Shown here: positions 1,123 to 59,800 of the stretch, piece by piece
How positions within the stretch are numbered: the first letter of the stretch is position 1
Layout of the letters: every line of letters begins with the position of its first letter
Position numbers and translations under genes: made by a program
DNA from: Octopus vulgaris
Lineage: Eukaryota
Assembly (NCBI GenBank): GCA_951406725.2
Contig: OX597814.1
Span: 216,008,001 to 216,072,000, forward strand
Reading direction: 5' to 3'
Length of the DNA stretch: 64,000 nt
Notes under the pieces: model-generated
What the model was told of the DNA's origin: nothing
Database searches by the model: none
What the model saw: the letters and a program-made list of their open reading frames with translations, nothing else

Positions 1123-1300
1123 CATTTTTACCACAATAGCTACGGTTGAATCCTGATTTATTTATTCCATCAACAGATCTTTCAGCAGTACCATGCCAAA
1201 GGCCATCAACTTCATTTGTAATGTTTGGATTTTCTACCTCAAACTTTCTTTTCAATGCTTGGTATCCATGGTATAATGTTTTATTTTGAATTCTCTCAAT
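1123..1300 (-). CDS. ART catalytic exon ([10 protein letters not shown]...LWHGT...[14 protein letters not shown])
   Basis: ctacag / gtaagt, 178 nt; NAD-binding HG motif and GFNRSY signature. Confidence 0.94.
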
Positions 1301-30500: not shown

Positions 30501-32056
30501 GGCTAAGTTCAGAGAGCCCCTACCTCTGCTAGCAACAAAGGGCCTCTCTCAGTGAAAGGCAGATTTATGAAGCCTGTGTGTGAACAGCCATGCTACATGG
30601 CCGTGAAACATGGGCTATAACAGCCAAGGACATGTGTAGGCTTGAGAGAAATGAAGCCAGTATGCTTCGCTGGATGTGCAATGTCAGTGTGCATGTTCGA
30701 CAGAGTGTAAACATCTTGAGAAAAAACTTAACCATAAGAAGCATCAGATGTGGTGTGCAAGAGATACGACTGTGCTGGTATGGTCATGGGATACACATGG
30801 ACAAGGACAGCTGTGTGAAGAAGTGCCACACACTCTAACAGTGGAGGGAACCTGTGAAAGAGACAGACCCAGGAAGACATGGGATGAGGTGGTGAAGTAT
30901 GACCTTAGAACATTGAGCCTCACAGAGGTAACCAAGACCTTTGGCGATATGCTGTGTTTGAAATGCCTCATCAAGCCAAGTGAAATCATAGTTAGGCCTC
31001 ACAGAGACAGTGACAAGTGACTGAGAGCTTTGGTAATATAGCATGTTTAAGAAGACCTGTCAAACCAAGTGCGCTCATAGATGTGGTTGATGCCAGTATT
31101 GTGTAACAAGCACCCATGCCAGTGGCACGTAAAAAGCACTACTACACACTTGAAGGGGTTGGTGTTAGGAAGGGAATCCAGCCATAGAAACCATGCCAAA
31201 TCAGATTGGAATCTGGTGCAGCTCCCCAGTAAATGATGATGACGATGGTGGTGGGTGGTGGTGGTGATGATGGTGATAATGATGATGATGATGGTGATGA
31301 TGATGATGGAGGAGGAGGAAGAGGAGGAACATGATACAATGCACAACAAATACGTCAACCAACCTTTACTATTTCTGTGTCTTTAGGGAAAACAACAAAG
31401 TAAACATCTTTGATATTAGCGGAATTTGGAGCTGACTCTTTGACTGCTTCATACATAGTTCCAGGTAGTTTTTCAATGGGATAATTCAATACTCCAGCTC
31501 CTAATATAGGAAATGCAAGGCTTTCTGCCCCGAGACATGAAGCATTTGCTAGACAAGAGTATACCATGCGAGTCAAGTTTTGCAATATCTGAAAAAATAA
31601 TTGTTTAGTAATTGATAATTAACATTTTATTAAATTATTTTCTTATTACAGGAAGAAATCATTAAGTTGTAATGAAAATATTCTTTCAGTTCTATATTTA
31701 AGAGAGGAGGAATTATGTACATTATTAACATTTGACAGATATTTGTCCTCATCTTGTTTGTTGTTAACAATGTTTCGGCTGATATACCCTCCAGCCTTCA
31801 TCAGGTGTCTTGGGGAAATTTCAAACCTGGGTTCTCATTCCTAAAGTATTTTTCGTTATTGTTGTTATTATTACTATTATAATTATTATTGTTGTTGTTG
31901 TTGGTGTTGTCATCGTTGTTGTTGTTGTTCAGGTCACTGCTTGGAATCGAACTGAGAATTTTGGTGTTAATAGCCTGCACTCTTAACCACTATGCCATAT
32001 GCCCGTGGACTACTAACCCTAAGATTCCGAGTTTGATTCCAAGCAGTGACCTGAAC

Positions 32057-32090
<34 letters not shown>

Positions 32091-35000: not shown

Positions 35001-38000
35001 AATCATGCCTAATGCATCTCACCAGATCCTGTCAAACTGCTTAACCCAAGCCAAAATGGAAGATGGACATTAAATGATGAGCAAGGCATATAAATTGTCT
35101 AAGACTCCATAAGAGAAATACCAGGCACTTGTACATTTGTCAACAGAGAAGTTGCGTTAATCATAAAGTTTACAATATCTTAAGTAACACATCTGGTTGT
35201 GGTTGCTGTAGGAGACAGCTAGTGAAGGGACTCCATCAAAGGTTATGTCCCTGGCCCCAAATCCCTGAGTGAGAAATAACTGCCAGTAAAGTGGAGTTTG
35301 AGTGTGGGCAGTATGGAGTTGGTGCAGGAAGCAGGGACTTGGAAAGAGGACATGGGAAGGCACCCAAGCCTTTAAACTCATGCGGATGCATATCTATGTG
35401 TTTATGTGCATATGGTTCGGTGTAGTCAGTATTGGACTCTTAGGTTGTGGTGTTGGAAAGACTGCTGGTGGAAATCGTAATGTTATGGTAGAGTTTGTAG
35501 ATAACTGATCACATACTATTTTTCATGCAGGCATATAATAATAATAATAATGAAATTATTGTATACAGTGCTCAGGTGCACCACAACTTGTCAAAAGTGC
35601 ATATAAAGTATATGCAGTAATGTACAAATGTCTGGGAAGCGAACAGTGTATGAATCAGATACATGCTTGTGTGCGTATGGAGGGGAGAAAATCAGGTGTA
35701 GTGTTGGCGAATCTCAGGAAGCATGGAAGTTTTGAAGGATGCAGTGCTCCGACAACTAACAACTGATACCGGCAGTTTGTTCCATGCTTCAGCAACTCTT
35801 AGCATGAAAAAATGTTTCCGAAAGTCATGGGAGTTGTGCTGTTTTCTGACTTTGTAAACATGTCCACGGGTGTTAGACAGATGAAGTTTGAAAAGGTGCT
35901 CAGAGTTGTTGTTTGTAAGATGGTTAATAATTTTATGGGTGTCTGCCAGGTCAGCTGCCAGACGTTGGAGTTACAATGTATCCATGCCCAGAGAAGTAAA
36001 ACTCACCCTTGCAGTTCAAGCTTTAGTTAAGTGTCTGAATGAAGAGAGTTCTTGAATATTGTTCTTTTCTAAGCAAGGTTTAACCTTCCCCGTCTGCTAC
36101 TATTGAAGTAACGGTTGCACCTCCCTATCACTCTCTACTTGATGTTATAATCCATGGCATTTTTCTTCAATAACCATATGTGTCTAGCCAGGGTTGTGGC
36201 ATTATGTCTCTCCTGGACATTAATGGAAATTTTTAGGATTGTTAAATATGGTTCTGAAAGGACCTTTTGTCATACCCACATATTTCCACATATTCTTCTG
36301 CTTGCTAAAGTAATAGTCAAGTGATACTGAATGGAAATAAGTACAAGTTTTCACTGTATAATATGCTGAATAGTAATACAAAGACAGTTCATAATTACTG
36401 AGAAAAAAATTAATAGAAACAATGAAAATGTCTTCTCACAAAACTGACTGACACAGCTTTGAGAAGCACCTTAGGTTGTTCTAAGCAGAAAAAGAAAAGT
36501 GAGAACATCTGTGAAGTATCAGAGCTCATTCTGTCTAGAAATGCAAAATAACAATTTGAAGCTGGAAACACAAAGCACAATCATTGAGTCAAAAGAGAAT
36601 TGGAGTTGGAGAAATGTAAGATTTTATGGGACTTTCCTATTCAAATGGAGAAAAAGTTAGAAAACAAAAGACTAGATATTACAGTCATAGATAAGGAAAA
36701 GAGAAGCTGCTTACTTATCGACCCATTATGTCTGTTTGATTCCAGGATCGTAAAGAAGAAGAAAAACAAAGTAAATACAATCCCTTAAAATTTGAAATAG
36801 GAAGAATTTGGAGCATGCAAACAGTAAAGGTGGTGCCTATAATAATTGGTGTGTTGGGAACAGGAGGCCAAAATATAGACAAATGGCTGAAGGATATTGA
36901 AATAGAATACCCGGTAGAGCTTCTACAGAAAGTTTGTCTTTTAGGTACAGCAAGGATTATCAGGAGGGTTGTAAGCACTTGAAAGACTGCTAAAAACTTG
37001 TGGCTACCTGAGGCTGCAGGTAGTAACTTGCTATCAACATAATTCCTTGCAGAAATAAAACCAAAATAGTAATTATCAGTAATGTTTAACATAGAATGAC
37101 GTGACAAGACACCGTAATATTCAATATTAACAAACAAATGTTTTACCTCTGTTTCGGAGATATTCATCAAATTCCTGTTAAAACAAAAAAAAATCACTTT
37201 ATATTTTTATTTTCCCATTTTTGCAAAGAGAAGAGATTTAATTTAACAAAAACAAAATATTAGAAATATTTAATGATTTATTTCTACTCTGTAATAAGGA
37301 AATGAGGAAAATTACTTTGTCACTCAGATCAAAGATATTCTATCCATGGCCTTCCTGCCTTTTGGGAGACATGAGACCTGTGTCAATATGGTAATACAGT
37401 GAATAGAGCAGAAAAACCTCCCATGCTTTACATGGCCACCAACATGGTGTTAGTGAAGTTAAACATGTGGTAATGGTGTCTTCATGTAGCTGAAGTTCTA
37501 CTGTTTTTTTTTCTATCCAGTTACCATCATGGTTAGAACCGTTGAACCTTGTGTTTGCAGTCAAAATGTCTATCAAGAATGTTGAATTTGAGGCGTTTTT
37601 GTTACATCCTGTTTGTCCAAAGCTATTTCAGGAACAAACAGGAGTACAAGGTAATTATTTTTACATTGTAAGGAAGAATGAGAGGAAACCTGACAATTCA
37701 GACCGTGGTCCTTCATAACAAAGAAAAAAGAAAAGATTCAAAGAGAAAAAGGTTCTCAAACAATTCTACAGTGGACAGAAATTTCCTCCATCTTTTTGTT
37801 ACAGTGGAAAGGCATAAATATTATATTTTGGTATTAATACTGCTTCTATCGTTATTATTTTTAATAGACCTTCTGGCTATTAATTATCTTTAATAAGCCT
37901 TCTGGCGATTAATTACTATCTGATGTACCCAGTAATTCCCAGGAAAGCAGGGCTTATCCCTTGGTTCCATTCTCATAATAGTTTCACTAATCCAGTGACA

Positions 38001-38549
38001 ACAATACAATGTATGTAGCCCTTAAAACGGTTTTTGTGTATTTACACAGGATCTTGTTTTTAAGAATTCCTAATAAGTTATGAATACCTAAATTGTGAAG
38101 TCAGTTATATAATAACATGAAATTAATTACCCAATAGTAAGAATTCAAATAAAGTAGCCCCGAAAAGGGCTTTAATATGTTCCCAGAGTTTATAGAACTT
38201 AGGAGGAAATACTAATAAGTTATGTATACTAAAATTGTGAAGCATGTTATGTAATAACAGGCTACTCAGATATGAGATAATAACACTTCAAAGTAAATAA
38301 CTCTGAAAAATGCTTTTGTGCATTCACAGGAACTATTACCCTCAGTGGTGCTAGTGTTGTTAAATTCATGAATAACTCACTAACCGAAATAGGTGGATCT
38401 ATTGTTTAGGTAAATACTATTTACTTGTTTAAGCGTTGTACTGGATAAACTGTGAAAATAACTCAAATAGTTCAATTACTAAGAAATAAGCATACTCAAT
38501 TTGATTTATACCAAATAACTTATGAACATGAATGGGTTATTTCCCTTGG

Positions 38550-38612
<63 letters not shown>

Positions 38613-38772
38613 TAAATAAATGGAGTTTAACTCAGGTGTAATCAAATATTTTTACTTTCGACACATGTTTCGAAAATTCCACTGATACTATTCAAAAGAA
38701 TAAATGGTAAAACAATGCAATCTTCTCCTTATTTTTTCCGTGTTAATTGTTAGCAAGGTAAAAATTACACTC

Positions 38773-38812
<40 letters not shown>

Positions 38813-41800
38813 ATCCCTTTCAGGAGCGAATGGGTTATTTCCCTTGGATGTTTAAAAATAATATATTAGTTACATGTAGTACTTATAAGAATCCATTCCA
38901 AGGGCCCTATTATAGATTTTTTCAACAATCTAAGTATGTCACTAGTTTTCTAGACATAAATTCTACTCACGTGTCAAGTTTCATCAAAATCGATAAAACG
39001 ATGTAGGAGGAGTTAGATAACAACTCCACAAACAAACACACCCACAGATTTCCACATATGTAGTAGATTTTTTTCTTAATAAATTTGCTGGCTATTAATT
39101 ATCTTTATTAAGCCTTCTTGTTATTAAATATTTTTAATAAACCTTCTGGCTATTAATTATTTTTAATAAACCTTGCGGCTGTTAACTATTTTTAATAAAC
39201 CTGCTGGTTAGTAATTATTTTTAATAGGCCTGGCTATTATTTTTAATAAACTTGCTGACTATTAATTATTTTTAATAAATTTGCTGGGTATTAATTATTT
39301 TAAACACACCTTCTGGCCATTAGTTACCTTTAATAAGCCTTGTGGTTATTAATTATTTTTGATAAACTTTCTGGCTATTAATTACCTTTAATAAGCTTGT
39401 GGTTATTAATTATTTTTAATAAACCTTCTGGCTGTTAATTACCCTTAATAAGCCTTGTGGTTGGGCCTGGTGCAGCCTCCTGGCTTCCCAGACCTCGATC
39501 GAACCGTCCAACCCATGCTAGCATGGAAAGTGGACGTTAAACGATGATGATGATGATGATAATGATAATGATAAAATCTTCTGGCTATTAATTATCTTTG
39601 TGACTACTGAGGACATGCACAAGCTTGCAAAGAATGAAGCTGGTATGATCCACTGGATGTGTAATGTCAGTGTGCATACTCGACAGAGTGTTACTGCCTT
39701 GAGAGAAAAGTTGGATTTAAGAAGCATCAGATGTGGTGTGCAAGAGAGACGACTGTGCTGGTATGGTCATATGTTGCGTTTGGATGTGGACAGCTATGTG
39801 AAAAAGAGTCACACCCTATCAAGAGAGGGAACCTGTGAAAGAAGTAGACCCAGGAAGACCTGGGATGAAGTGGTGAAGCACGACTTTCAAATGTGACCGA
39901 GACATTTGGAGATATGCTGTGCTTGAGAAGACCCGGCAATGCAAGTGAGACCATAAACATGATCTATGCCAGTGCAGTATTACCAGCCCATTTAAGAGTA
40001 ACTTTCAATCATTGGGCAATAAACTGCACTTACGAAGACCTGTTGAGGCAAGTGAAATCCTGCTCATGGCTGATAACAGGACCACCTGATTGGCACCTGT
40101 GCCAGTGGTGTATAAAAGGCACCATTTGAGCGTGATCATTGCCACTGCCGCCTGACTGGCACTCGTGCTGGTAGCATGTAAAAGAGCACCATTCAAGCAT
40201 GGTTGATGCCAGTACCACCTGACTGGCTCATGTGCTGGTGGCATGTAAAAAGTACCCACTACACTCTCAGAGTGGTTGGCATTAGGAAGGGCATCCAGCT
40301 GTAGAAATTTTGCAAATTAGATTGGAGCCTGGTGCAGCCTTCTGGCTTCCCAAACCTCAGTCAAACTGTCCAACCCATGACAGCGTGGAAACCGGATGTT
40401 AAACGACGATGATGATGATGAAACCTTCTGTTTATTAATTACCTTTAATAAACCTTCTGACAATTAATTATCTTTAATACGCCTTATGGCTATTAATTAT
40501 TTTTAACTAGGAAACGCACCCATCCTTTGGACAGTTTAAGTTGCTTTGGTGTTATTTTTTCCCCAGTTACTTGAACTACCGAGAAGGTTTATGAGTAGCA
40601 CAGCAATCTATGTTTCTGATTAATCTAGGAACAGAAAATCAAATTGAAGGCTGGTTATTGTGGAGGTCGTTGCACTTTAATGATCATAGAACATATGAGT
40701 TTGCAAGTGATGCAAAATAGAGCTACTGAAGTGTTTTGGGAGTAGATTACGGATAATGACTACAAAATATAGTTGTTTTTTAAGTATATTTTGTTCACTC
40801 TTATTTTCATGTATATCATATAAACATCTACATCTTTTGGAACATTGTCATTTTATAAGACTTTACTGGCAAATTTTTAAGTCAACATTTATTTATATGA
40901 AAGAAAACTATTGGTAACATAACACGAATTGGGCAGAGTTAAAGAATACACACACCATCCGTCTTCCATGTAATCCTAACCCTAAACCCTAACCCTAGCC
41001 CTAACCCTAGCCCTAAACACTGGGTGTGCATATTATTTACCTTCACCCACATGTTGTTCTAAAAATAACAGTTAAATAAGATTTTTTTGATAAATCTTTT
41101 AAACTAACATAAACTTTTATTTATATAAAAACTAACATTTCATTTTCTGAGCCGAGAATCGAAACTGAATCTAAGGATTCTCGCTGACCTGATCCACCAC
41201 TGGCCGAACAGGTGTGACAGAAATTTCTTTATCCTGTCAAAATGTGATGGATGGATTTCTAACCTGAGCTGTGTCACTGAAGGTTCAACTGGACAGCAGG
41301 TGACCTAGATAAGTAGTAAGGACTCCAATGGTATGTCTGTTCTTCTTGCTAGGATGACCATTATAAATAGTTACCTTAGATACAGGACAGATAAGCAGGC
41401 AGCTTGCAACAGGTAAGCAACCAACAGAGAGCCACATAGTCAGCATGAGTGAATTATGATAGCCAATGACACAGCACAGTAACAGGACACAAAAAGATAG
41501 GACAGAAAAACAACACAACTCAACCAAATGTTCAATGCACACACAGACACAAAATATGCCATGCAGTCTCTCATCAAATCAACATTCTACTTCTCCTGTT
41601 GTTATTTTTACTTTGCCACCTCAAAGCTGTTGGTAACTTCATGTAGCAGCCTTCATTGATATTGTAAATTAAACTTTGAGTATCCAACACGTAGATGCAA
41701 GTGTGGATCAAATAAATTATTTAAACTACATTCCTCATTGTTTTACTTTGATGTCGTCCTATCTCCATCGGCGACACCCGACAACATACATTGAACCATC

Positions 41801-44800
41801 AACATCACATTTCGCTGCCCATACTGCTACAATTTACATGAAAGAAAATTGCCATAAGAGGTAAGATGGAGAGAAGCTTCAGCTAGTGTCCTCACAGGCA
41901 AGGCACATAGGTATAAAAATCTTCTGGGAAGGTAACATCGATGGAGTAGGGGTATGTGATAGAGTGCTTAAGCTCAGGCTAGTCTTGCAGAATAGTATAG
42001 CTACAATTATCTCTGCCTATGCCCCCGCAAGTGGCCCTATCAAATCCTCCGAAGGACCATTTTTATGATACTCTCCTACAGGCTACCTCAAGGACGAGTG
42101 GCAATGACCTCATCTTTGCAGCTGGAGATTTTAATAGGTATGTTGGGTGGGAATCCGGTATCTTCACTGGTGTACAGGGGGGGGGCATGCTATTGGTTCC
42201 TGAAAAGAAGATGGAACCAGGCTACTGGAGTTTTGTGATGCATTTAACCTTTTAATCTGCAACACTAACTTCAGGAAACCAGATAGCCACCTGATAACCT
42301 ATCAATCAGGTGACTCTGCTAGCCAGATTGATTTCATCCTCACCAGACAGCGGGACGCAGGGTTGCTCTTAAATACAAAGACCCTCTCAGGTATGGAATG
42401 TACCCCCAGCATAGACTAGTCATTAGGGACTTTAGACTCGAGGCCAGAAGGATGCCAAGAAGCAGACCAATCCAGAAAAGAAGGATTTGGAAGCTAAAGA
42501 ACCCTTCACATGGTCTGAGATTTAGGGATATCCTCATCAAGAAATTTGATGAGAGCGAGGAGGAGCTACAGTCTTCGGACATAGAAGGTAGCTGGAAATT
42601 CCTACGAGACAGCTTACTGAGTGCCACAGACCAAGTCCATGGATGGAGCAAAGTCCCTTCCAGACCTAGAGTTATGTGGTGGTGGAATTATACAGTAGAC
42701 AGAGCCATCAGGACAAAGAAACAGGCCTGGAAGGGTTGGGGTAGCAGGGAACAGTACCAGATAGCCAGAAAGGAGGCTAGGAGACAGGCATACATAGCCA
42801 AGGGCGAAGCAGAAAAGAAGTTTGCCAATGTCCAGCAACATAAAGACCAAAGAAATGAAGTATTTCGGATTGCAGTGTGTGAGAGAAAATTGTGATGTCA
42901 CAGGAGAGAAATGTGTCCGCATGGATGATGGTGCACTTGCTTTTAATGATTCCGAAATGAAAGAGGTTTGGAGAAGCCATTATGAAAGACTGCTGAACGT
43001 GGAAAATGAGTTGGAGGAGGAGAGCCAGCCAAATGTTGCCACAGTAGAGGGACCAGCTATCCGAATAAACAGCACCATTGTAGATAAAGCAATTAAGGTT
43101 ATGAAGCCAGGAAAAGCCCCTGGCCATCAGGAATCACTGCTTAGATGCTTAAAACATCTGGTGGTGTGGGCTATGGCCTAGTCACCTGCATTGTGAACCA
43201 GGTAGTTCATGATGGAGTCATACTGCTAGTTTTATTATATTCTTCACCAATTTCATGAACTAAAGTCCCTCTTTAAAGACATCACAAGATGGCAATGTCC
43301 TTCTGTGAAAGACGCTGTTCAAAAATACTAATATGCATTTTCATGTCTCAGATGTTTCTTTTATTTCAATGTTGGTTTACATTATTTTACTCAATTCTTC
43401 TTCCTTGAATATACACCAATTATGTCAATGCTGCAGCAGCAGCAAGTGAAGGCGCAATGGCCCAGTGGTTAGGGTAGTGGACTCGCGCGGTTTTGATTCC
43501 CAGGCCGTGCGTTGTGTGTGTTTATTGAGCGAAAACACCTAAAGTTCCACGAGGCTCCGGCAGGGGGTGGTGGCGACCCCTGTTGTACTCTTTCACCCCC
43601 AACTTTCTCTCATTCTTTCTTCCTGTTTCTTGTCCCCGACTTGCTACGCAACCACTGAGCCTGGATGCGCATTCATCCATCCGTCGAAGCTCTCAGTATT
43701 GGGGGTTGACCTGCTTTCTCTTCTGCGGGTCTTACGAATAGCAAAGGACCACGTTTCCGACTTCTCCTACTATAGAGGCGCGATCTTGCGAGCTCTGGGA
43801 CGAAGACTGCTTCACTCAACAAACAAACAAACAAAAGCAGCAGCAGCAGACCACCACCACCACCGCCACCACCAACCTTATATGGAACAGCATGAAATGT
43901 TGGAGAATGCAGTTGACAGCTGGTGCATCAAGTATTAGGAGAGGTGAAAATCAAGAGAGGAATCTTCCAGGGGGGACAGCGTGTTCCCACTGATATTCAT
44001 GCTGGGAATGATCCCCTTGAGAGAAATACTACAGGAAACAAAGTTCTGGTATTACAGTTTTATATTTAAGAGATGAGGAATTAAGTACATTATTTACATT
44101 ATTTATATTTGATGGATTTTTGTCCTCATCTTGTTTGTTGTTAAAACAACGTTTCGACTGATATACCCTCCAGCTTTTCATCAGGCGTTTTGAGGAAATT
44201 TTGAACCTGGGTTCTCATACCTAAGGATGTTGTTGTTGTTGTTCAGGTCACTGCTTGGAATCAAACTCGGAATCTTGGGGTTAGTAACCTAAAGCTATTC
44301 ACTAAGACTGAGAAAGAAATTGAGAGCTTGATGGCAACTGTGCAGATGATTAGCAAAGATATTGGCATGGAAGTTGAGATCAAGAAATGTGGTGTAATGA
44401 TTCTCAAAAGGGGGAGAAATCAGTAAAAGCCATGGGATCAAGCTGGAAAGTGATGAAACTATAAGGGAATTCAGAGAGGAAGAATATAGGTACCTGGGTA
44501 TCATTGAAAGAGATAAGATGAATAAACACGAGATCAAAGAAAAGTTAAGGAAGGAGTATTTGAAGGAAATTTGGCTTGTGCTCCAATTGAAGCTAAATGG
44601 CTGCAATAAGATTAGAACAATTAACACATGGGCTGTTGCTTTGATGAGATATGGGGCAGGAATAGTATCTTGATAGAAGCATGAATTACAAGAGATAGAC
44701 CAGAGAACATGTAAATTAATGACAATGAACAAGAAATTAGAACCCCAAGAGTGATGTGTCAAGGTTGTATGTAAAGGAGGAGGGAAGGACGACAGGGATT

Positions 44801-47800
44801 GGTATGTTGTGAATGGTGTGTCAAGGAAAAGGAGAATAGCCTGGCTTGGTATGTCAAGGGGAATAAAGAAGAAAGGATTGAAGCAGTGAAAATGCAGGGA
44901 ACCTTAAAAGTGAACGCAGCCGTAGATCCAACACGATTTAAGGAAGGCTAGAGAAATCAGATGAAGGAAATTTATTAGGACAAGAACATGCACAGTCAGT
45001 TCTTGAAGAATAAAGATGAGATTAATTGGAATAGAACCTGGCAATGGCTGCAGAAAGGAGACTTAAAAGGGCCTATTGGAGGCATTAGTGTGCAACGCTC
45101 AAGAACAAGCTCTCAGAACAAACTCCTCTAAATATCACATTGATAAAAGCACTGACTTGCCACAGTGTAGGATGTGCTCTGAGAAGAGAGAAAGTATAAG
45201 AGAAAGCTGGTGCCACGTAAAAAGCACCCAGTACACTCTGTAAATTGGTTGATGTTAGGAAGGGTATCTCAACTGCAGAATCCATACCAAAACAAAGAAT
45301 GGAACCAGGTTTGGCTCTTTGCCTAGCCAGTTCCTGTCAAACTGTCCAACCCATGCCAGCATGGAAAACAGGTGATAAATAACGAGCATGATTCTAAGTT
45401 TTATTTTCATTTCGATTTCCTTTGTTTATTGCAGAATATTTTCTTTGTTTTGGTGAATTCCAAGAATATCAACATAAAACAACAAACAACAAATACATCA
45501 ACCAACCTTTACTATTTCTGTGTCTTGAGGATAAACCACAAAGTTTACAACTTTGATCTGGCTTGAATTTTGGTTTGAGTAGTTTTTCACTGCTTCATAC
45601 ATAGTTCTGGGTAGGTTTTCAATGGGGTACTTCAATGTTCCAGCTCCTAATATAGGAAATGCAAGGCTTTTTGCTCCTCTTCTCTCAGCTTTTCCCAGAC
45701 AAATGGTTATTATTTGAGTCAAGTTTGCCAGAGTCTAAAAAAAATAATTGTTTAGTAATTGATAATGAACATTTTATTAAATTATTTTCTTATTACAGGA
45801 AGAAACCATTAAGTTGTAATAAATATATCCTCCTCTCACAACTCCTCTCACTCCTGCCACTGCTAAACACAACTGTCATTCCTATCACTCTTTAGTCCTG
45901 CAAGGGACAAGGCAACCTCACTCATGCTGCTGCTACAATAAAACAGACCCAATCCACCGTGTAAAATGGTTGGTGAATGAAGAGAGGGAATGCAGACCCA
46001 AGAGGAGTCTTTGGTGTTGTTGAGGACATGACAACCTCTCTAGTGCTCGTGCCATGACAGAGAAATACATACCAATACAGACAGTAAAACAGAGAAATAT
46101 GTTTTAATATAGTCTTATTTATCAGTCACATAACTGTTGTTAGGCCATGAGGCTTTTTTCCCTTCTATTTATATATAAAAGTGTCCTGTTCATCGATATC
46201 TTCTGCTTCCTTCCAATGATAACTTGGAAGAACAAATATTAAACAGGATGCTGACATTTGCTTTATGATTCTCACACAACATGCATAAGGTTCTCTTCAA
46301 ACATTAACTGTTTCAATAAATCAAATACATATGAATAATACTTACTAAATGTGAGGAGTTTACACCCCAGGGAGGTAATGCCAGATGAAATACATTCTTA
46401 CAGTTGAGGTTATATCCTTTAGTGATGGCTACTTCAGAAGTAGAAATACCTTGAGGATATTTCTGGCTACATTCAGCTTGTATCTGTGGACCAGCAGCAT
46501 TGAGAATAAATTTGGAGATAGAACCATCATTAAGCTGGAGGTGTTTATTGGTGCTGTTAACGATGACATCAACCTACAATAGTAATTAATGGTAAACAGC
46601 TAAGGAACATTCCGTGGAGAGAAGAGAGATAAATTGTTGCAGTTGATATTGTTGTTAAGTAAGGTTCTACAGAATGGCTGTAGCAAGTTTGAGGTTGTTA
46701 AAGTTAGCAAAAGATATACTCAAGATATCAGATGTGAAGGAAATGAAATGTTTGAGTTAGATTGAGAAAATGTTTTAATTAACTGTAATGATTCCTTATT
46801 TGGAAATGAAATAACAATTAAATATAAATATGTTACGTGAATCTATTTACTCACAGATACATTAGAAATTGAACCAATCATTAAGTTTATTTTAATGCCA
46901 GCATTTTCTCCGGATGTCATATAAGGTCTGGGTATGATAGAGACTGTTTTCTGTTGTGGACCAGGAAAGGATGGGCTTGATAATTTAGTTTCTGGAAATA
47001 AACAAATATCAGTGTGTCATCATCATGACCATCGTCATCGTTCAACATCTACCTTCCATGCTGGCATGGGTTGGATCATTTGACAGGAACTTGCCAGGTA
47101 GAAGATGGCACCAGACCTCTATGTCTGTTTTGGCATGTACAGAAGTCTGGTGCAGTTTTCCACCTGGCCACACACCTACTGATGCAAGTTGAGCAAAATG
47201 ACATATAAAGACACATCCATCATAGCAAAAGTGAGGTCCTAAATGCATTATGCTTATTCCTGTCCATGTTGGGCCCTACACCGACATTTGCCCATGTCAA
47301 CCATACCCTTCACCACATCTCATTTTCCTAACACCCATCCCTCCATTACTCTTCTAACTATGGCCCTACTTTGTTGCTGTAAGCATTTGAGAGCAGAATC
47401 TGCACAACACTTCTCACCCCTTTTCATTAATACTAGTTGCCTCTCTTTCATCATCATCATCATCTCCGTTCGTACAACCTTCCATCGATCATCCCTTTTT
47501 GCCCCTTCCCTAATCTTTCCCTTCCCACTCTTAGCTACATCTTAGTTTGCCATTCTTGATGTTTAACACTTCTCCTATATGCATTTATTCTCAACGCCCT
47601 CTCACATCCATTATCAATACTCCCTCCAATTTTGTCTCCCCACTCACTATAGCCATCCTCATGTATCTCTAACTCCCATCTCTGTCCCAGTTGATCATCA
47701 TCATCAACCCATCCCTTCCACTGTCACATCCTGTGCATCATCTCTGTACTTCCTTGTCTATGAATTTATGATTCTGCTGCTCTCCTCTGCTACTCCTATG

Positions 47801-50800
47801 TTGCTACTTGTCACCCCCTCCTACCCAAACCTCATCTAACTCTCACTTGCCCCACTCCATACAGATATTTGCCATCAACTCCACCCCAAACCATTGTTCC
47901 TCACTCACTACATCCACCTCTAGCCCTATCACTAACCATCTGCCACTCCTCTCATCCCATATTCTTATGAAATTACCCTCTCTTTCTTACCTTCCTCATC
48001 CACATTCTATATTCTCTCCCCATACACACATCCTTGCAAACTGAGTGTATGCACTTGCACCCTATGACCACCATCTTTCTCCCTTCCAGCTACTTTCATT
48101 CACTTTTGTAAAAAATATAAGCAAGTCGTGAATTTCCCCCATATCAAGACACCCCTACTTGACCCTCTATCAAACCTCTCCTACCCCGGATATAAAGCCA
48201 CCTACCCGTCTCCCAAATTCTCCCTATCACTCTCTACTTGATGTTATAATCCATGGCATTTTTCTTCAATAACCATATGTGTCTAGCCAGGGTTGTGGCA
48301 TTATGTCTCTCCTGGACATTAATGGAAATTTTTAGGATTGTTAAATATGGTTCTGAAAGGACCTTTTGTCATACCCACATATTTCCACATATTCTTCTGC
48401 TTGCTAAAGTAATAGTCAAGTGATACTGAATGGAAATAAGTACAAGTTTTCACTGTATAATATGCTGAATAGTAATACAAAGACAGTTCATAATTACTGA
48501 GAAAAAAATTAATAGAAACAATGAAAATGTCTTCTCACAAAACTGACTGACACAGCTTTGAGAAGCACCGTAGGTTGTTCTAAGCAGAAAAAGAAAAGTG
48601 AGAACATCTGTGAAGTATCAGGCTCATTCTGTCTAGAAATGCAAAATAAGAATTTTTATAATGCCCAGCAGGGTTTTCCAAAAAACGTTTGACCAGACTA
48701 TTTGGTGGGAAAATTCCATTGCCCTTGGTTGTACATCAGCTGATCTGATTGGCCAAGCCATGTTCACAGAGGTGTTAGCGCCTTTCATAGTGGCATGATT
48801 TATTTTCCATAACTGGTTTTCCTTTGCTGACAATATGGTTCCATGCTGAAGAACCTGAGTGTGATGGTTCAAAACTCAGTAGGAGCCTAGCTATAAACTT
48901 TCAATTAATGAGGTAATGAATCAGCTCATTAAGTATGATAATAACTATTAATTAATTTAATATTTACAATCAGATTACATTTATGGTTCTTTTTCCTAAA
49001 GTAATAATTGGATGTAACTTATGTTGTATCATCACACATGAGATGGTCATGGAAGACTACATTGATGAGTTAACTCCCCTCTCATAAGACATTGAAGAGT
49101 TAACTCCCCTCTCAAAAGACGTTATTTTGGTTTATTGCAAGATGGTATTTTAGAATAATTTCTTCATCACAAAGTCCAAAGCTCTTCTCTTCAATTAGAA
49201 ATTATAATGTTCAAGATAGTCTTTTAATAAGAATTACAACCAATTAGAATCAATATCAAGTTTATATTTTTTGGTTAGATTTTATGAGGCTTGGTTCAAT
49301 TCTAAATCTAATATTTTTATTCAGTTTACATACTTTAACCCTCTTAAAGTCTTGTATTATAGATATCTGAACCTATTAGCAAATCCTAATCCAAATGGTA
49401 CTGTAGTTCCCAGAATGCTGTTGCTTGGGAGTGCAAAACTGGAAGCAAGCAATCTTCTGTGCAAGAAACAAAGTTTAGTCTTATTTCTGAAAGAACTTTC
49501 TGTGAAATGAATAAAAAAAAAGAGGATCAAGCATGTAATAGGAGAGAAGGACAAGGATGAAATGCAAAGATATCATGTCAGACAGATTGAAGAGGAACGT
49601 CTGCATGGCCAATTCTGGAGAGTCACTAAAGACATATTGTGGAACAAAATCCTGGGCTTGGTTAAAAAGGGGCCAATTAAAAAAAGAAACAGAGAGCCTA
49701 ATTGTAACAGTCCAAGATCAAGCGATAAAAACAAACAACTTGAGTAAAAATATATATGGAGAGAATGTGTCAGAAAAATGTAGAGCCTGTGGAACTTGGA
49801 ATGAGTCAGTGGCACACATCGTGGAAGAATGCCCCAAGTTGGCACAGGAAGAATATAAGAAACGGAGGCACGACCAGGTTGTAAAAGTTTTACACTGGAA
49901 ACTGTGCCAGAAATGGGGATTTGAAGCTGGAAACACAAAGCACAATCATTGAGTCAAAAGAGAATTGGAGTTGGAGAAATGTAAGATTTTATGGGACTTT
50001 CCTATTCAAATGGAGAAAAAGTTAGAAAACAATAGACTAGATATTACAGTCATAGATAAGGAAAAGAGAAGCTGCTTACTTATCGACCCATCATGTCTGT
50101 TTGATTCCAGGATCGTAAAGAGGAAGAAAAAGAAAGTAAATACAATCCCTTAAAATTTGAAATAGGAAGAATTTGGAGCATGCAAACAGTAAAGGTGGTG
50201 CCTATAATAATTGGTGTGTTGGGAACAGGAGGCCAAAATATAGACAAATGGCTGAAGGATATTGAAATAGAATACCCGGTAGAGCTTCTACAGAAAGTTT
50301 GTCTTTTAGGTACAGCAAGGATTATCAGGAGGGTTGTAAGCACTTGAAAGACTGCTAAAAACTTGTGGCTACCTGAGGCTGCAGGTAGTAACTTGCTATC
50401 AACATAATTCCTTGCAGAAATAAAACCAAAATAGTAATTATCAGTAATGTTTAACATAGAATGACATGACAAGACACCGTAATATTCAATATTAACAAAC
50501 AAGTTTTTTACCTCTGTTTCGGAGATATTCATCAAATTCCTGTAAAAACAAAAAAGAATCAATTTATATTTTTATTTTCCCATTTTTGCAAAGAGAAGAG
50601 ATTTAATTTAACAAAAACAAAATATTAGAAATATTTAATGATTTATTTCTACTCTGTAATAAGGAAATGAGGAAAATTACTTTGTCACTCAGATCAAAGA
50701 TATTCTATCCATGGCCTTCCTGCCTTTTGGGAGACATGAGACCTGTGTCAATATGGTAATACAGTGAATAGAGCAGAAAAACCTCCCATGCTTTACATGG

Positions 50801-53800
50801 CCACCAACATGGTGTTAGTGAAGTTAAACATGTGGTAATGGTGTCTTCATGTAGCTGAAGTTCTACTGTTTTTTTCTATCCAGTTACCATCATGGTTAGA
50901 ACCGTTGAACCTTGTGTTTGCAGTCAAAATGTCTATCAAGAATGTTGAATTTGAGGCGTTTTTGTTACATCCTGTTTGTCCAAAGCTATTTCAGGAACAA
51001 ACAGGAGTACAAGGTAATTATTTTTACATTGTAAGGAAGAATGAGAGGAAACCTGACAATTCAGACCGTGGTCCTTCATAACAAAGAAAAGAGAAAAGAT
51101 TCAAAGAGAAAAAGGTTCTCAAACAATTCTACAGTGGACAGAAATTTCCTTCATTTTTTTGTTACAGTGGAAAGGCATAAATATTATATTTTGGTATTAA
51201 TACTGCTATTATATTATTATTTTTAATAGACCTTCTGGCTATTAATTATCTTTAATAGACCTTCTGGCTATTAATTACTATCTGATGTACCCAGTAATTC
51301 CCAGGAAAGCAGGGCTTATTCCTTGGTTTCATTCTCATAATTGTTTCACTAATCCAGTAACAACAATACAATGTATGTAGCCCTTAAAACGGTTTTTGTG
51401 TATTTACACAGGATCTTGTTTTTAAGAATTCCTAATAAGTTATGAATACCCAAATTGTGAAGTCAGTTATATAATAACATGAAATTAATTACCCAATAGT
51501 AAGAATTCAAATAAAGTAGCCCTGAACAGGGCTTTAACCCCTTACCCGGCAGAAACGAATATATGCGTTTTGACCGAAATCGTTTTTTTCTATCTCTGGC
51601 GAGTTAACTCGTCAAAAGATAGACTCGCCAAAATCAACAGCAAACGAGTTCCTTTGTCTATTATAAACTCTCATTTGACATATACGAGTATATTCGCTCA
51701 CTTTATACGACTGGCAGTGATGATTTCTGCCACCTTTCGCTTGAGTAAGGCATTGAAGACCGAGTATGATTTAGTCACCTGGAGACAGTCGAAGGGTTGG
51801 AAGGCACATTTTATGAATAGAAGTATTCACTTTGTTTTTACGTTGTTTTTTTTTATACCTTTATATTATAACCCCACCATGTCGAGCTCTGATGATGATA
51901 ATTCATTATTTTGTCTCTCTTTTTTGTCATTACTAACAGTTTTGAAGTAATAAAATCAACAGAAGTAAACAATCATGTTTTGATCATTCATTCTAAATTT
52001 GGAAAATAAGATAACCAAATAAAATAACATGATTTTTTGTAAAAGTAATATGATTTATGAAAAAAACAGGTTAACTCGTTTCTGCCCAAAGCGGTAATTT
52101 AAAATCAATATTATTGAATTAAAATTCATAATAAATAAGGTTTGAAATATACCTTGAAATCACCATTCAAAACATAGTAAAATAAAACAATTAAAAAATA
52201 TGTCTGAAAAAATACATTCATTTTCAAAATAATTGTTGGGTAAGGGGTTAATATGTTCCCAGAGTTTATAGAACTTATTAGGAAATACTAATAAGTTATG
52301 TATACTAAAATTGTGAAGCATGTTATGTAATAACAGGCTAATCAGATATGAGATAATAACACTTCAAAGTGAATAACTCTGAAAAAAGCATTTGTGCATT
52401 TACAGAGAATATTACCCTCAGTGGCGCTAGTGTTGTTAAATTCATGAATAAGTCACTAACTGAAATAGGTGGATCTATTGTTTAGGTAAATACTATTTAC
52501 TTGTTTAAGCATTGTACTGGATAAATTGTGAAAATAACTCAAATAGTTCAAATACTAAGAAATAAGCATACTCAATTTGATTTATACCAAATAACTTATG
52601 AACATGAATGGGTTATTTCCCTTGGCTATATTTATATATAAGGATCCCTTTCAGGAGCGAATGGGTTATTTCCCTTGGATGTTTAAAACTAATATATTAG
52701 TTATATGTAGTACTTATAAGAATCCCTTCCAAGGGCCCTATTATCGATTTTTCCAACAATCTAAGTATGTCACTAGTTTTCTAGACATAAATTTTACTCA
52801 CGTGTCAAGTTTCATCAAAATCGATAAAACGATGTAGGAGGAGTTAGATAACAACTCCACAAACAAACACACCCACAGATTTCCACATATGTAGTAGATT
52901 TTTTCTTAATAAATTTGCTGGCTATTAATTATCTTTATTAAGCCTTCTTGTTATTAAATATTTTTAATAAACCTTCTGGCTATTAATTATCTTTAATAAG
53001 TCTTCTGGCTATTAATTATTTTTTATAAGCCTTCTGGCAATTAATTATTTTTGATAAACCTTCTGGCTATTAATTATCTTTAATAAGCCTTCTGGCTATT
53101 AATTATCTTTACTAAGCCTTCTGGCTATTAATTATTTTTAATAAACCTTGTGGCTGTTAACTATTTTTAATAAACCTGCTGGTTAGTAATTATTCTTAAT
53201 AGACCTGGCTATTAATTATTTTTAGTAAACTTGCTGACTATTATTTATTTTTAATAAATTTGCTGGGTATTAATTATTTTAAATAAACCTTCTGGCTATT
53301 AGTTACCTTTAATATGCCTTGTGGTTATTAATTATTTTTGATAAACTTTCTGGCTATTAATTACCTTTAATAAGCCTTGTGGTTGGGCCTGGTGCAGCCT
53401 CCTGGCTTCCCAGACCTCGGTCGAACCATCCAACCCATGCTAGCATGGAAAGCAGAGGTTAAACGATGATGATGATGATGATGATGATGATAATGATAAA
53501 ATCTTCTGGCTTTTAATTATCTTTGTGACTACTGAGGACATGCACAAGCTTGCAAGGAATGAAGATGGTATGATCCGCTGGATGTGTAATGTCAGTGTGC
53601 ATGCACGACAGAGTGTTACTGCCTTGAGAGAAAAGTTGGACCTAAGAAGCATCAGATGTGGTGTGCAAGAGAGACGACTGCGCTGGTATGGTCATATGTT
53701 GCGTTTGGATGTGGACAGCTATGTGAAAAAGAGTCACACCCTAGCAAGAGAGGGAACCTGTGAAAGAAGTAGACCCAGGAAGACCTGGGATGAAGTGGTG

Positions 53801-56800
53801 AAGCACGACTTTCAAATGTGACTGAGACATTTGGAGATATGCTGTGCTTAAGAAGACCCGGCAATGCAAGTGAGACCATAAACATGATCTATGCCAGTGC
53901 AGTATTACCAGCCCATTTAAGAGTAACTTTCAATCATTGGGCAATAAACTGCACTTAGTAAGACCTGTTGAGGCAAGTGAAATCCTTGTCATGGCTGATA
54001 ACAGGACCACCTGATTGGCACCTGTGCCAGTGGTGTATAACAGGCATCATTTGAGCGTGATCATTGCCACTGCCACCTGACTGGCACTCGTGCTGGTAGC
54101 ATTCAAGCGTGGTTGATGCCAGTACCACCTGACTGGCTCCTGTGCTGGTGGCATGTAAAAAGCACCCACTACACTCTCGGAGTGGTTGGCGTTAGGAAGG
54201 GCATCCAGCTGTAGAAATTTTGCCAGATTAGATTGGAGCCTGGTGCAGCCTTCTGGCTTCCCAAACCTCAGTCAAACTGTCCAACCCATGACAGCGTGGA
54301 AAACGGATGTTAAACGACGATGATGATGATGAAACCTGTTTATTAATTAGCTTTAATAAACCTTCTGACAATTAATTATCTTTAATACGCCTTATGGCTA
54401 TTAATTATTTTTAAACTAGGAAACGCACCCATCCTTTGGACAGTTTAAGTTGCTTTGGTGTTATTTTTTCCCCAGTTACTTGAACTACCGAGAAGGTTTA
54501 TGAGTAGCACAGCAATCTATGTTTCCGATTAATCTAGGAACAGAAAATCAAATTGAAGGCTGGTTATTGTGGAGGTCGTTGCACTTTAATGATCATAGAA
54601 CATATGAGTTTGCAAGTGATGCAAAATAGAGCTACTGAAGTGTTTTGGGAGTAGATTACGGATAATGACTACAAAATATAGTTGTTTTTTAAGTATATTT
54701 TGTTCACTCTTATTTTCATGTATATCATATAAACATCTACATCTTTTGGAACATTGTCATTTTATAAGACTTTACTGGCAAATTTTTAAGTCAAAATTTA
54801 TTTATATGAAAGAAAACTATTGGTAACATAACACGAATTGGGCAGAGTTAAAGAATACACACACCATCCGTCTTCCATGTAATCCTAACCCTAAACCCTA
54901 AACCTAGCCCTAAACACTGGGTGTGCATATTATTTACCTTCACCCACATGTTGTTCTAAAAATTACAGTTAAATAAGATTTTTTGGATAAATCTTTTAAA
55001 CTAACATAAACTTTTATTTATGTAAAAACTAACATTTCATTTTCTGAGCTGAGATTCGAAACTGAATCTAAGGATTCTCGCTGACCTGATCCACCACTGG
55101 CCGAACAGGTGTGACAGAAATTTCTTTATCCTGTCAAAATGTGATGGATGGATTTCTAACCTGAGCTGTGTCACTGAAGGTTCAACTGGACAGCAGGTGA
55201 CCTAGATAAGTAGTAAGGACTCCAATTGTATGTCTGTTCTTCTTGCTAGGATGACCATTATAAATAGTTACCTTAGATACAGGACAGATAAGCAGGCAGC
55301 TTGCAACAGGTAAGCAGCCAACAGAGAGCCACATAGTCAGCATGAGCGAATTATGATAGCCAATGACACAGCACAGTAGCAGGACACAAAAAGATAGGAC
55401 AGAAAAACAACACAACTCAACCAAATGTCCAACGCACACACAGACACAAAATATGCCATGCACTCTTTCATCAAATCAACATTCTACTTCTCCTGTTGTT
55501 ATTTTTACTTTGCCACCCCAAAGCTGTTGGTAACTTCATGTAGCAGCCTTCATTGATATTGTAAATTAAACTTTGAGTATCCAACACGTAGATGCAAGTG
55601 TGGATCAAATAAATTATTTAAACTACATTCCTCATTGTTTTACTTTGATGTCGTCCTATCTCCATCGGCGACACCCGACAACATACATTGAACCATCAAC
55701 ATCACATTTCGCTGCCCATACTGCTACAATTTACATGAAAGAAAATTGCCATAAGAGGTAAGATGGAGAGAAGCTTCAGCTAGTGTCCTCACAGGCAAGG
55801 CACATAGATATAAAAATCTTCTGGGAAGGTAACATCGATGGAGTAGGGGTATGTGATAGAGTGCTTAAGCTCAGGCTAGTCTTGCAGAATAGTATAGCTA
55901 CAATTATCTCTGCCTATGCCCCCGCAAGTGGCCCTACCAAATGCTCTGAAGGACCATTTTTATGATACTCTCCTACAGGCTGCCTCAAAGACGAGTGGCA
56001 ATGACCTCATCTTTGCAGCTGGAGATTTTAATAGGTATGTTGGGTGGGAATCCGGTATCTTCACTGGTGTACAGGGGGGGGCATGCTATTGGTTCCTGAA
56101 AAGAAGATGGAACCAGGCTACTGGAGTTTTGTGATGCATGTAACCTTTTAATCTGCAACACTAACTTCAGGAAACCAGATAGCCACCTGATAACCTATCA
56201 ATCAGGTGACTCTGCTAGCCAGATTGATTTCATCCTCACCAGACAGCGGGACACAGGGTTGCTCTTAAATACAAAGACCCTCTCAGGTATGGAATGTACC
56301 CCCAGCATAGACTAGTCATTAGGGACTTTAGACTCGAGGCCAGAAGGATGCCAAGAAGCAGACCAATCCAGAAAAGAAGGATTTGGAAGCTAAAGAACCC
56401 TTCACATGGTCTGAGATTTAGGGATATCCTCATCAAGAAATTTGATGAGAGGGAGGAGGAGCTACAGTCTTCGGACATAGAAGGTAGCTGGAAATTCCTA
56501 CGAGACAGCTTACTGAGTGCCACAGACCAAGTCCACGGATGGAGCAAAGTCCCTTCCAGACCTAGAGTTATGTGGTGGTGGAATTATACAGTAGACAGAG
56601 CCATCAGGACAAAGAAACAGGCCTGGAAGGGTTGGGGTAGCAGGGAACAGTACCAAATAGCCAGAAAGGAGGCTAGGAGACAGGTATATATAGCCAAGGG
56701 TGAAGCAGAAGAGAAGAAGTTGCCAATGTCCAGCAACATAAAGACCAAAGAAATGAAGTATTTCGGATTGCAGCGTGTGAGAGAAAATTGTGATGTCACA

Positions 56801-59800
56801 GGAGAGAAATGTGTCCGCATGGATGATGGTGCACTTGCTTTTAATGATTCCGAAATGAAAGAGGTTTGGAGAAGCCATTATGAAAGACTGCTGAACGTGG
56901 AAAATGAATTGGAGGAGGAGAGCCAGCCAAATGTTGCCACAGTAGAGGGACCAGCTATCCGAATAGACAGCACCCTTGTAGATAAAGCAATTAAGGTTAT
57001 GAAGCCAGGAAAAGCCCCTGGCCCATCAGGAATCACTGCTGAGATGCTTAAAACATCTGGTGGTGTGGGCTATGGCCTAGTCACCTGCATTGTGAACCAG
57101 GTAGTTCATGATGGAGTCATACTGCTAGTTTTATTATATTCTTCACCAATTTCATGAACTAAAGTCCCTCTTTAAAGACATCACAAGATGGCAATGTCCT
57201 TCTGTGAAAGACGCTGTTCAAAAATACTAATATGCATTTTCATGTCTCAGATGTTTCTTTTATTTCAATGTTGGTTTACATTATTTTACTCAATTCTTCT
57301 TCCTTGAATATACACCAATTATGTCAATGCTGCAGCAGCAGCAAGTGAAGGCGCAATGGCCCAGTGGTTAGGGTAGTGGACTCGCGGTTTTGATTCCAAG
57401 GCCGTGCGTTGTGTGTGTTTATTGAGCGAAAACTCCTAAAGTTCCATGAGGCTCCGGCAGGGGTTGTGGCGACCCCTGTTGTACTCTTTCACCCCCAACT
57501 TTCTTTCAGTCTCTCTTCCTGTTTCTTGTCCCCGACTTGCTACGCAACCGCTGAGCCTGGATGCGCATTCATCCATCCATCGATGCTCTCGGTATTGGGG
57601 GTTGACCTGCTTTCTCTTCTGCGGGTCTTACGAATAGCAAAGGACCACGTTTCGGACTTCTCCCACTACAGAGGCGCGATCTTGCGAGCTCTGGGACAAA
57701 GACTGCTTCGCTCAACAAACAAACAAACAAAAGCAGCAGCAGCAGGCCACCACCACCAACCTTATATGGAATAGCATGAAATGTTGGAGAATGCAGTTGA
57801 CAGCTGGTGCATCAAGTATTAGGAGAGGTGAAAATCAAGAGAGGAATCTTCCAGGGGGGACAGCGTGTTCCCACTGATATTCATGCTGGGAATGATCCCC
57901 TTGAGAGAAATACTACAGGAAACAAAGTTCTGGTATTACAGTTCTATATTTAAGAGATGAGGAATTAAGTACATTATTTACATTATTTATATTTGATGGA
58001 TTTTTGTCCTCATCTTGTTTGTTGTTAAAACGTTTCGACTGATATACCCTCTAGCTTTTCATCAGGCATTTTGAGGAAATTTTGAACCTGGGTTCTCATA
58101 CCTAAGGTAGTTGTTGTTGTTATTGTTGTTCAGGTCACTGCTTGGAATCAAACTCGGAATCTTGGGGTTAGTAACCTAAAGCTATTCACTAAGACTGAGA
58201 AAGAAATTGAGAGCTTGATGGCAACTGTGCAGATGATTAGCAAAGATATTGGCATGGAAGTTGAGATCAAGAAATGTGGTGTAATGATTCTCAAAAGGGG
58301 GAGAAATCAGTAAAAGCCATGGGATCAAGCTGGAAAGTGATGAAACTATAAGGGAATTCAGAGAGGAAGAATATAGGTACCTGGGTATCATTGAAAGAGA
58401 TAAGATGAATAAACACGAGATCAAAGAAAAGTTAAGGAAAGAGTATTTGAAGGAAATTTGGCTTGTGCTCCAATTGAAGCTAAATGGCTGCAATAAGATT
58501 AGAGCAATTAACACATGGGCTGTTGCTTTGATGAGATATGGGGCAGGAATAGTATCTTGATAGAAGCATGAATTACAAGAGATAGACCGGAGAACATGTA
58601 AATTAATGACAATGAACAAGAAATTAGAACCCCAAGAGTGATGTGTCAAGGTTGTATGTAAAGGAGGAGGGAAGGACGACAGGGATTGGTATGTTGTGAA
58701 TGGTGTGTCAAGGAAGAGGAGAATAGCCTGGCTTGGTATGTCAAGGGGAATAAAGAAGAAAGGATTGAAGCAGTGAAAATGCAGGGAACCTTAAAAGTGA
58801 ACGCAGCCGTAGATCCAACACGATTTAAGGAAGACTAGAGAAATCAGATGAAGGAAATTTACTAGGACAAGAAAACGCACAGTCAGTTCTTGAAGAATAA
58901 GGATGAGATTAATTGGAATAGAACCTGGCAATGGCTGCAGAAAGGAGACTTAAAAGGGCCTACTGGAGGCATTAGTGTGCAACGCTCAAGAACAAGCTCT
59001 CAGAACAAACTCCTCTAAATATCACATTGATAAAAGCACTGACTTGCCACAGTGTAGGATGTGCTCTGAGAAGAGAGAAAGTATAAGAGAAAGCTGGTGC
59101 CACGTAAAAAGCACCCAGTACACTCTGTAAATTGGTTGGTGTTAGGAAGGGTATCTCAACTGCAGAATCCATACCAAAACAAAGAATGGAACCAGGTTTG
59201 GCTCCTTGCCTTGCCAGTTCCTGTCAAACTGTCCAACCCATGCCAGCATGGAAAACAGGTGATAAATAATGAGCATGATTCTAAGTTTTATTTTCATTTC
59301 TATTTCCTTTGTCTATTGCAGAATATTTTCTTTGTTTTGGTGAATTCCAAGAATATCAACATCAAACAACAAACAACAAATACATCAACCAACCTTTACT
59401 ATTTCTGTGTCTTTAGGATAAACCACAAAGTAAACATCTTTGATCTGGCTTGAATTTTGCTTTGAGTAGTTTTTCACTGCTTCATACATAGTTCTGGGTA
59501 GGTTTTCAATGGGGTACCTCAATTTTCCAGCCCCTAATATAGGAAATGCAAGGCTTTTTGCTCCTCTTCTCTCAGCTTTTCCCAGACAAATGGTTATTAT
59601 TTGAGTCAAGTTTGCCAGAGTCTAAAAAAAATAATTGTTTAGTAATTGATAATGAACATTTTATTAAATTATTTTCTTATTACAGGAAGAAACCATTAAG
59701 TTGTAATAAATATATCCTCCTCTCACAACTCCTCTCACTCCTGCCACTGCTAAACACAACTGTCATTCCTATCACTCTTTAGTCCTGCAAGGGACAAGGC

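Follow-up and report, generated by a model that had tools for sequence, protein, structure and literature searches.

Mosaic parentage of the middle macrodomain module in a PARP14-like gene of Octopus vulgaris, with a switch in its first intron

The locus examined here carries three macrodomain modules in tandem and raises the question of how the middle one was made, as its first exon resembles one neighbor and its remaining exons the other. The window (the whole 64,000-nt stretch of O. vulgaris DNA that was analyzed; G+C 38.5%, 0 N) was found to hold part of a PARP14-like gene on the minus strand, with both gene ends outside. Pfam matches to Macro and PARP fell on one strand and in order, with at least two macrodomains upstream of the PARP domain; together with homologue matches, these gave a gene order of (i) three macrodomain modules; (ii) an acidic linker exon; (iii) a WWE-like exon; and (iv) the start of the PARP domain, where the joining of the modules to the downstream exons was inferred from homologues. 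The modules are named in transcription order as H (60.9-50.5 kb), M (47.0-37.1 kb), and L (33.6-26.8 kb), corresponding to modules 1, 2, and 3 of a first-pass annotation of this DNA. Each is composed of four exons, A (137 nt), B (228 nt), C (228 or 225 nt), and D (28 or 55 nt), and all twelve exons are bounded by AG/GT and, when spliced together, give 1,887 nt in frame with 0 stops (Table 1). Skipping of the 281-nt intron between exons A and B was detected in two contigs of sequencing run X10, which we guess to be RNA, and this supports the exon model without being specific to one module. The best named matches of exon B were PARP14-like proteins of Octopus sinensis and O. vulgaris, with 39 of the 95 hits Octopus-type at about 72-86% identity within an overall range of 65-86%, and the downstream exons were 94-98% identical to O. 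sinensis P0033. The WWE-like region before the catalytic domain scored 18.1 bits against a Pfam cut-off of 21.1. The exon that follows the HGT-motif exon was not found in the window, the rest of the PARP catalytic domain being beyond its edge. At the other end, no exon for an N-terminal RRM/KH domain or for macrodomain 1 was found in the 60.9-64 kb part of the window. Exon A of module H resembles exons located just after macrodomain 1 in P0021 and P0023, and macrodomain 1 is probably located upstream of module H.

Table 1. Coordinates, strand, and supporting evidence of the features of the PARP14-like locus (window positions).
Feature	Position	Strand	Basis
H exon A, 137 nt, linker and macrodomain start	60739..60875	-	AG/GT; 98% to O. 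vulgaris P0021 module 1 exon A
H exon B, 228 nt	60230..60457	-	Pfam Macro E 4.7e-13; AG/GT
H exon C, 228 nt	59394..59621	-	Pfam Macro E 3e-4, alone below curated cut-off; AG/GT
H exon D, encoding the last helix, 28 nt	50512..50539	-	Exact match to P0010/P0036 linker peptide; AG/GT
M exon A, L-type	46855..46991	-	Same protein sequence as exon A of P0036 from O. sinensis (identity 1.0)
M A-B intron, 281 nt, phase 0, contains switch	46574..46854	-	Three-way site comparison
M exon B, H-type	46346..46573	-	Pfam Macro E 2.4e-12
M exon C, H-type	45507..45734	-	Differs from H at 8/228 nt, with 6 amino acids changed
M exon D, same sequence as that of H	37147..37174	-	Sequence comparison
L exon A	33489..33625	-	Same protein sequence as exon A in module 2 of P0010 from O. 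sinensis
L exon B	32980..33207	-	Sequence comparison
L exon C, 225 nt, divergent type	31364..31588	-	93% identity with exon C of P0036 and about 66% with that of M
L exon D, 55 nt	26849..26903	-	Sequence comparison
Homology common to all three modules, about 700 bp	46306..47008	.	Alignment
Repeat unit P, B-C-D-A cassette with introns, 13,366 bp	33350..46716	.	Self-alignment
Repeat unit Q, second B-C-D-A cassette, 13,884 bp	46717..60600	.	Self-alignment
Acidic-linker exon, downstream	21514..21810 (limits approximate)	-	tblastn to P0023, 89%
Exon with WWE-like region	7430..7801 (limits approximate)	-	97.6% to P0033; Pfam WWE E 0.0035
Exon leading into PARP catalytic domain	2082..2219 (limits approximate)	-	95.7% to P0033
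PARP catalytic-domain exon with HGT motif	1121..1309	-	Pfam PARP E 8.3e-5; 93.7% to P0033

The parentage of module M was determined by a three-way comparison of the 703 homologous positions at 46306-47008, of which 66 were variable and 54 informative. Up to 46716, M matched H at 25 of 29 informative sites, and from 46745 it matched L at 24 of 25, such that 49 of the 54 were concordant with a single, clear switch in parentage. The maximum chi-square of 36.3 was reached in 0 of 100,000 shuffles (permutation p 1e-5). At the level of whole exons, exon A of M differed from L at 5 of 135 nt and from H at 22 of 135 nt, while its exon B differed from H at 5 of 228 nt and from L at 16 of 228 nt. The seven marker sites on which the first-pass annotation had based a chimeric middle macrodomain were all found as quoted, with M equal to H at 46599, 46614, 46660, and 46716 and equal to L at 46745, 46759, and 46803. 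The same annotation had reported 46692 as the one discordant site; this site was indeed present, but it proved to be one of five (46394, 46424, 46459, 46692, and 46952). M was unlike both neighbors at 11 sites, six of them in the A-B intron, and all three modules differed at one more. The switch itself, earlier placed at about 46690-46745, does fall within the A-B intron, but over a wider interval of 46661-46744: a break after 46660 or after 46716 left 5 discordant sites either way, and the segments 46661-46691 and 46717-46744 fitted equally. Firm limits set by the divergent flanks were broader still (46477-46883), and within them 10 sites backed the switch modestly (exact p 0.04).

These limits enclose a core of 407 bp in which L and H were 97.5% identical (10 sites, or 2.5%, differed), compared with differences of 14% and 17% in the flanks. 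L and H are older paralogues: their C exons were about 81% identical in DNA, and exon A-intron-exon B was the only long stretch that could be aligned between the two module types. Their other introns do not align. The core is the only good misalignment substrate between the types, and it may have been homogenized by earlier exchange. We also considered whether the A-B intron alone was homogenized family-wide and dropped this candidate, as the H-type B-C intron also had deep, near-identical contigs; the A-B intron is unique as a homogenized stretch only between the L and H types. Within this intron M differed from H at 10 of 281 positions and from L at 10 of 281, while H and L differed at 8 of 281. 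Thus, because M differs from each more than they differ from one another, its A-B intron is not a pure hybrid of the present flanking copies, and the excess of M-private sites there was slightly above the background prediction (p 0.046). One M-specific change, at 46580, lies in the pyrimidine tract just before the exon B acceptor and could weaken cassette inclusion. Overall, the switch interval was located inside the L/H homology with identity to one neighbor continuing on both sides, as at a junction of nonallelic homologous recombination (NAHR).

The modules are embedded in two long repeat units, P and Q, whose ends coincide with the 700-bp homology. Alignment of 32940-47008 with 46306-60892 gave 12,497 columns with 328 mismatches and with indels of 1,270, 1,267, 714, and 245 bp. 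With the macrodomain homology and a 29-bp satellite set aside, P and Q differed at 190 of 10,419 positions (1.8%), comprising 118 transitions and 72 transversions; these differences look biological, with an excess of transitions and a TTAA-flanked element present in one unit. The duplication proposed earlier was put at about 13.4 kb; the two units measure 13,366 and 13,884 bp, and a deletion between tandem paralogous genes would give the same layout. The TTAA-flanked element is a 714-bp segment found only in Q (51535-52248) that is bounded by TTAA on either side, with short inverted repeats at its termini, and which we take from these features to be a piggyBac-like nonautonomous element. The largest indels, at 34852-36121 (1,270 bp, only in P) and 48653-49919 (1,267 bp, only in Q), have no end duplications and look like deletions in the other unit; they are nearly equal in size, and a retroelement frame (49542-49949) crosses one edge of the latter. 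The 29-bp satellite, at 39076-39462 (13.6 copies) and 52898-53382 (16.8 copies), was the most divergent part of the comparison, and short relatives of it were detected at 40421-40506 and 51205-51283. In module L, the B-C intron carries a 525-bp palindromic element with a microsatellite center (31714-32239), and related pieces were found at 44091-44286 and 57975-58173.

The differences between the duplicated exons were then related to the variation of the gene family. A total of 14 nonsynonymous and 4 synonymous codon differences were identified, which is near the neutral ratio. At 12 of the 14 amino-acid differences, both residues were found in the corresponding column of 36 family modules, compared with 287 of 1,286 (22%) for random single-base changes. 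Counted by cluster, the figure was 7 of 9 (p 6e-4), a test that is somewhat inflated by tolerant columns. Tight amino-acid-changing clusters were located at 46917-46926, 45527-45550, and 45631-45645; their alternatives occur in other Octopus modules, and the clusters are possible short conversion tracts. New mutation was rejected as the source of the changes in M exon A, as its protein is the variant found in O. sinensis P0036; a contig of run X1 also showed 0 differences from 46850-47023. The differences between duplicated exons thus appear to derive largely from the family pool, through standing variation or conversion, and therefore cannot date the event. In addition, P and Q were probably already different versions when joined, since exon A of M equals that of P0036 and exon A of L equals that of P0010, both of O. 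sinensis.

The consequence for the protein was examined with the macrodomain boundary set by sequence alignment to solved structures. P0036, the closest relative, which shares exon A with M, had its best matches in human PARP14 macrodomain 2 (3q71, E-value 1.8e-21) and in the human PARP14 catalytic domain (6e-43), and matched macrodomain 3 with 7.6e-10; its alignment to macrodomain 2 started at residue 85, which equals module residue 30. Part of the stretch before residue 30 aligned to the human first strand region and hence may be linker or first strand. Exon A donates 17 codon-level changes, 15 of which were seen in the translated module, 13 before residue 30 and 2 after. Between H and M, 26 of 206 residues differed: 13-15 of these precede residue 30, another 2 are in the remainder of exon A, and 9 are in exons B and C (3 in B and 6 in C). 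The two pocket loops, whose positions are those of the macrodomain literature located through the alignment, are in exons B and C. The hybrid domain of the first-pass annotation is accordingly hybrid in part: its exon A is L-type, but both pocket loops reside in H-type exons B and C and most of the exon A changes are in the linker or first strand. On these alignments, M would be described as an H-type reader with an L-type linker. Ahead of the first strand-loop, at a position presumed to act in the pocket, the usual Asp is replaced by Ser, and this was considered as a sign of a dead pocket; the candidate was dropped, as human macrodomain 2 is also without the Asp. For macrodomains 2 and 3, binding without catalysis is described (PMC13224862, PMC10221186). 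M is predicted to be one more catalytically inactive, macrodomain-2-like ADP-ribose reader, located between a probable macrodomain 1 and the transferase domain, and the predicted effect is on dosage or avidity and not on specificity. The junction probably changes little in the protein beyond the number of readers.

Module structure was next compared across relatives by using 47 complete modules (39 distinct; incomplete modules were dropped) from 39 proteins and the window. In seven pairs of the 39 distinct modules, exons B and C were at least 90% identical but exon A was below 90%, while in 0 pairs were A and B at least 90% identical and C below 90%. The seven pairs reduce to about five cases (the window, P0001 modules 4/5, P0010/P0023, P0016/P0025, and the P0011/P0014/P0026 group), which derive from automatic gene models, some on short contigs and with isoforms among them. 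For example, P0026 is an isoform that joins exon A of one module to exon B of the next, and splicing can give the same swap. At the protein level, P0010 has a two-module form and P0023 a one-module reciprocal form with H-type A on L-type B-C-D; these forms come from another record and could reflect exon skipping or model error. Exon A is also the most variable exon (mean identity 0.62), which favors the asymmetry between A and B-C. The rank correlation of identity between neighboring exons was 0.12 for A-B and -0.01 for B-C, such that the identity of one exon says little about that of its neighbor. When exon halves were compared, the A|B boundary was not singled out (0.06, versus 0.02-0.12 elsewhere and 0.45 within exon C), and this test does not show a hotspot at A|B.

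The number of modules per protein ranged from 1 to 5, with 0 in O. bimaculoides P0097, in which macrodomain 1 is joined directly to the acidic linker, an arrangement that may be genuine or may reflect a gap in the assembly. The three-module arrangement of this subfamily was absent from the 39 Octopus-type proteins, nor among them did exon B of H or M have a match above 88%. When 96 domains were classified against one bird PARP14, 77 were best matched to macrodomain 2, 19 to macrodomain 1, and 0 to macrodomain 3, a classing that is coarse, as the third domain of oyster also scored as macrodomain 2 and a Ciona domain as macrodomain 3. H, M, and L were all best matched to macrodomain 2 (95-120 bits, versus 53-63 bits for macrodomain 3), so the three are not the distinct macrodomains 1, 2, and 3 of the canonical architecture. 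The scores of the 96 domains suggest that macrodomain 3 was lost. Among the individual models, that of P0036 starts in sequence found in introns of the window (37606-37716 and 50969-51079). It also contains the beginning of the WWE exon twice, and seems to be two neighboring genes fused. P0101 of Pomacea canaliculata has two macrodomain-1-like domains that are 66% identical, possibly an independent duplication in the snail.

The simplest reading of these results is the one proposed in the first-pass annotation, a crossover in the A-B intron between older paralogous modules by which the frame was kept, but a deletion and fusion gives the same layout. We lean, with moderate confidence, toward an unequal crossover in the A-B intron that added one cassette to a two-module PARP14-like gene, of which two versions were by then already distinct. 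The two versions would misalign, crossing-over in the 281-bp intron would result in the gain of one B-C-D-A cassette, and M would thereby have its exon A from the L type and its exons B-D from the H type, with the frame kept. Of this explanation, the mosaic, the repeat, and the intact splice sites and frame were observed directly. The crossover would presumably be meiotic, between homologous chromosomes, and if so the 1.8% difference between P and Q would partly be older allelic difference and not age; gene conversion from many paralogues, later or earlier, may have supplied most of the amino-acid differences. Pre-existing differences between P and Q fit meiotic crossover, a deletion between tandem paralogues, and a misassembly of two haplotypes alike. 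The second of these, which we regard as rather unlikely, would start from a tandem pair of paralogous genes that both carry one H-type and one L-type module, and would join the L intron of the first to the H intron of the second, with the sequence between deleted and a fused three-module gene left. It is in agreement with the presence in the records of one species, O. sinensis, of both versions of exon A (that of M in P0036 and that of L in P0010), and with four O. sinensis models having L-type exon C in three versions (P0036; P0010/P0023; P0033), which is more than two alleles; the four indels of 245-1,270 bp and the 1.8% divergence also suit paralogues. Nonetheless, three of the four models are on contigs of 80-109 kb that could be alternative haplotypes or fragments, and complete paralogues of the family are usually far more different (mean 62-79% identity per exon) than P and Q. 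More improbable by far is an older duplication overwritten by several gene-conversion tracts, with the switch as the end of one tract: the conversion-like clusters at 46917-46926, 45527-45550, and 45631-45645 and the six private intron sites of M would be accounted for, but identity to one neighbor runs 13 kb on each side through unrelated introns, and a tract of such length equals a crossover.

Whether M exists on any molecule was addressed with public read data. Among the 24 runs listed, none of them recorded as RNA, the best share of junction-region words was 0.58, with 322 of the 721 words (0.45) common to L or H anyway. No junction-spanning contig was found in four of these public runs, in which contigs were short (longest listed piece 258 bp), and a missing span in such contigs was not counted as evidence. 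The M alleles at 46580, 46632, and 46665 and the M/H-shared allele at 46660 were absent from the contigs of all four runs. The A-B and B-C introns were covered by contigs at a depth far above that of the exon variants (for instance, 1,173 versus 25-43 in X3); this is a hint of many copies and is not a measure of copy number. An assembly artefact, in which both haplotypes of one two-module gene were placed in tandem with a switch in the 700-bp repeat, would account for the low share of junction words relative to that expected from L and H alone, for the missing M intron alleles, and for a divergence and indel pattern of allelic size. The heterozygosity of O. vulgaris is given as 1.22% (10.1101/2023.05.16.540928). 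The 1.8% divergence of the units is close to this value. Against such an artefact stand the lack of any gap at the junction (0 N), the size of the repeat, which at 700 bp is far shorter than long reads, and the recurrence of the same A|B swap in independent Octopus records; moreover, the runs come from other animals or collapse rare variants, as the M/H-shared allele at 46660 was missing too. We consider the artefact unlikely and the junction itself very probably real.

Unequal crossover is a known mechanism, and a single junction is an ordinary example of it. The value of this one is as a mapped entry point to near-identical, mosaic, macrodomain-2-like modules of variable number across the Octopus PARP14-like genes. 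A broader model, which we put forward tentatively as possible and short of probable, is that of an accordion: (i) one macrodomain-2-like reader would have replaced the ancient pair of macrodomains 2 and 3; (ii) its copies would vary from 0 to 5 through recurrent crossover in a single short homogenized intron, conversion across paralogues, and in-frame skipping of B-C-D-A; and (iii) each animal would thereby hold combinatorial ADP-ribose readers against viruses, with the window as one step of expansion. If true, this would offer a testable example of copy number varying at the level of domains, within a gene family of invertebrates that has antiviral members in mammals. An accordion of octopus macrodomain modules was not found in the literature searched, which did not cover subscription journals; a supplement of metazoan macroPARPs (PMC10221186) may include octopus proteins.

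When compared with known systems, the gene of the window is like PARP14 (ARTD8)/macroPARP in its order of macrodomains, WWE-like region, and PARP domain, and it belongs to the same subfamily as the octopus PARP14-like proteins P0010, P0023, P0033, P0036, and P0001 (94-98% over the downstream exons and exon A). Clusters of duplicated PARP14 genes are reported for vertebrates, lancelet, and sponges (PMC4038475, PMC13224862). The ancestral PARP14 form, as given in PMC10221186, had three ancient and distinct macrodomains, whereas the three modules of the window appear as recent copies of one macrodomain-2-like unit. PARP15 and PARP9, according to PMC4038475 and PMC10221186, arose when PARP14 was partly duplicated with a change in the number of macrodomains; these are new genes made from whole domains, in contrast to the octopus unit, which is an intragenic four-exon cassette cut in the first intron of the domain. 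In the immune gene arrays of invertebrates, NAHR by misalignment of shared repeats results in gain on one haplotype and loss on the other, as described in PMC12314368. The substrate in the octopus gene differs in that it is not a transposon but an exon-intron-exon block, coding and conserved, with a length of about 700 bp, and because the crossover substrate is such a block, the octopus product stays in frame.
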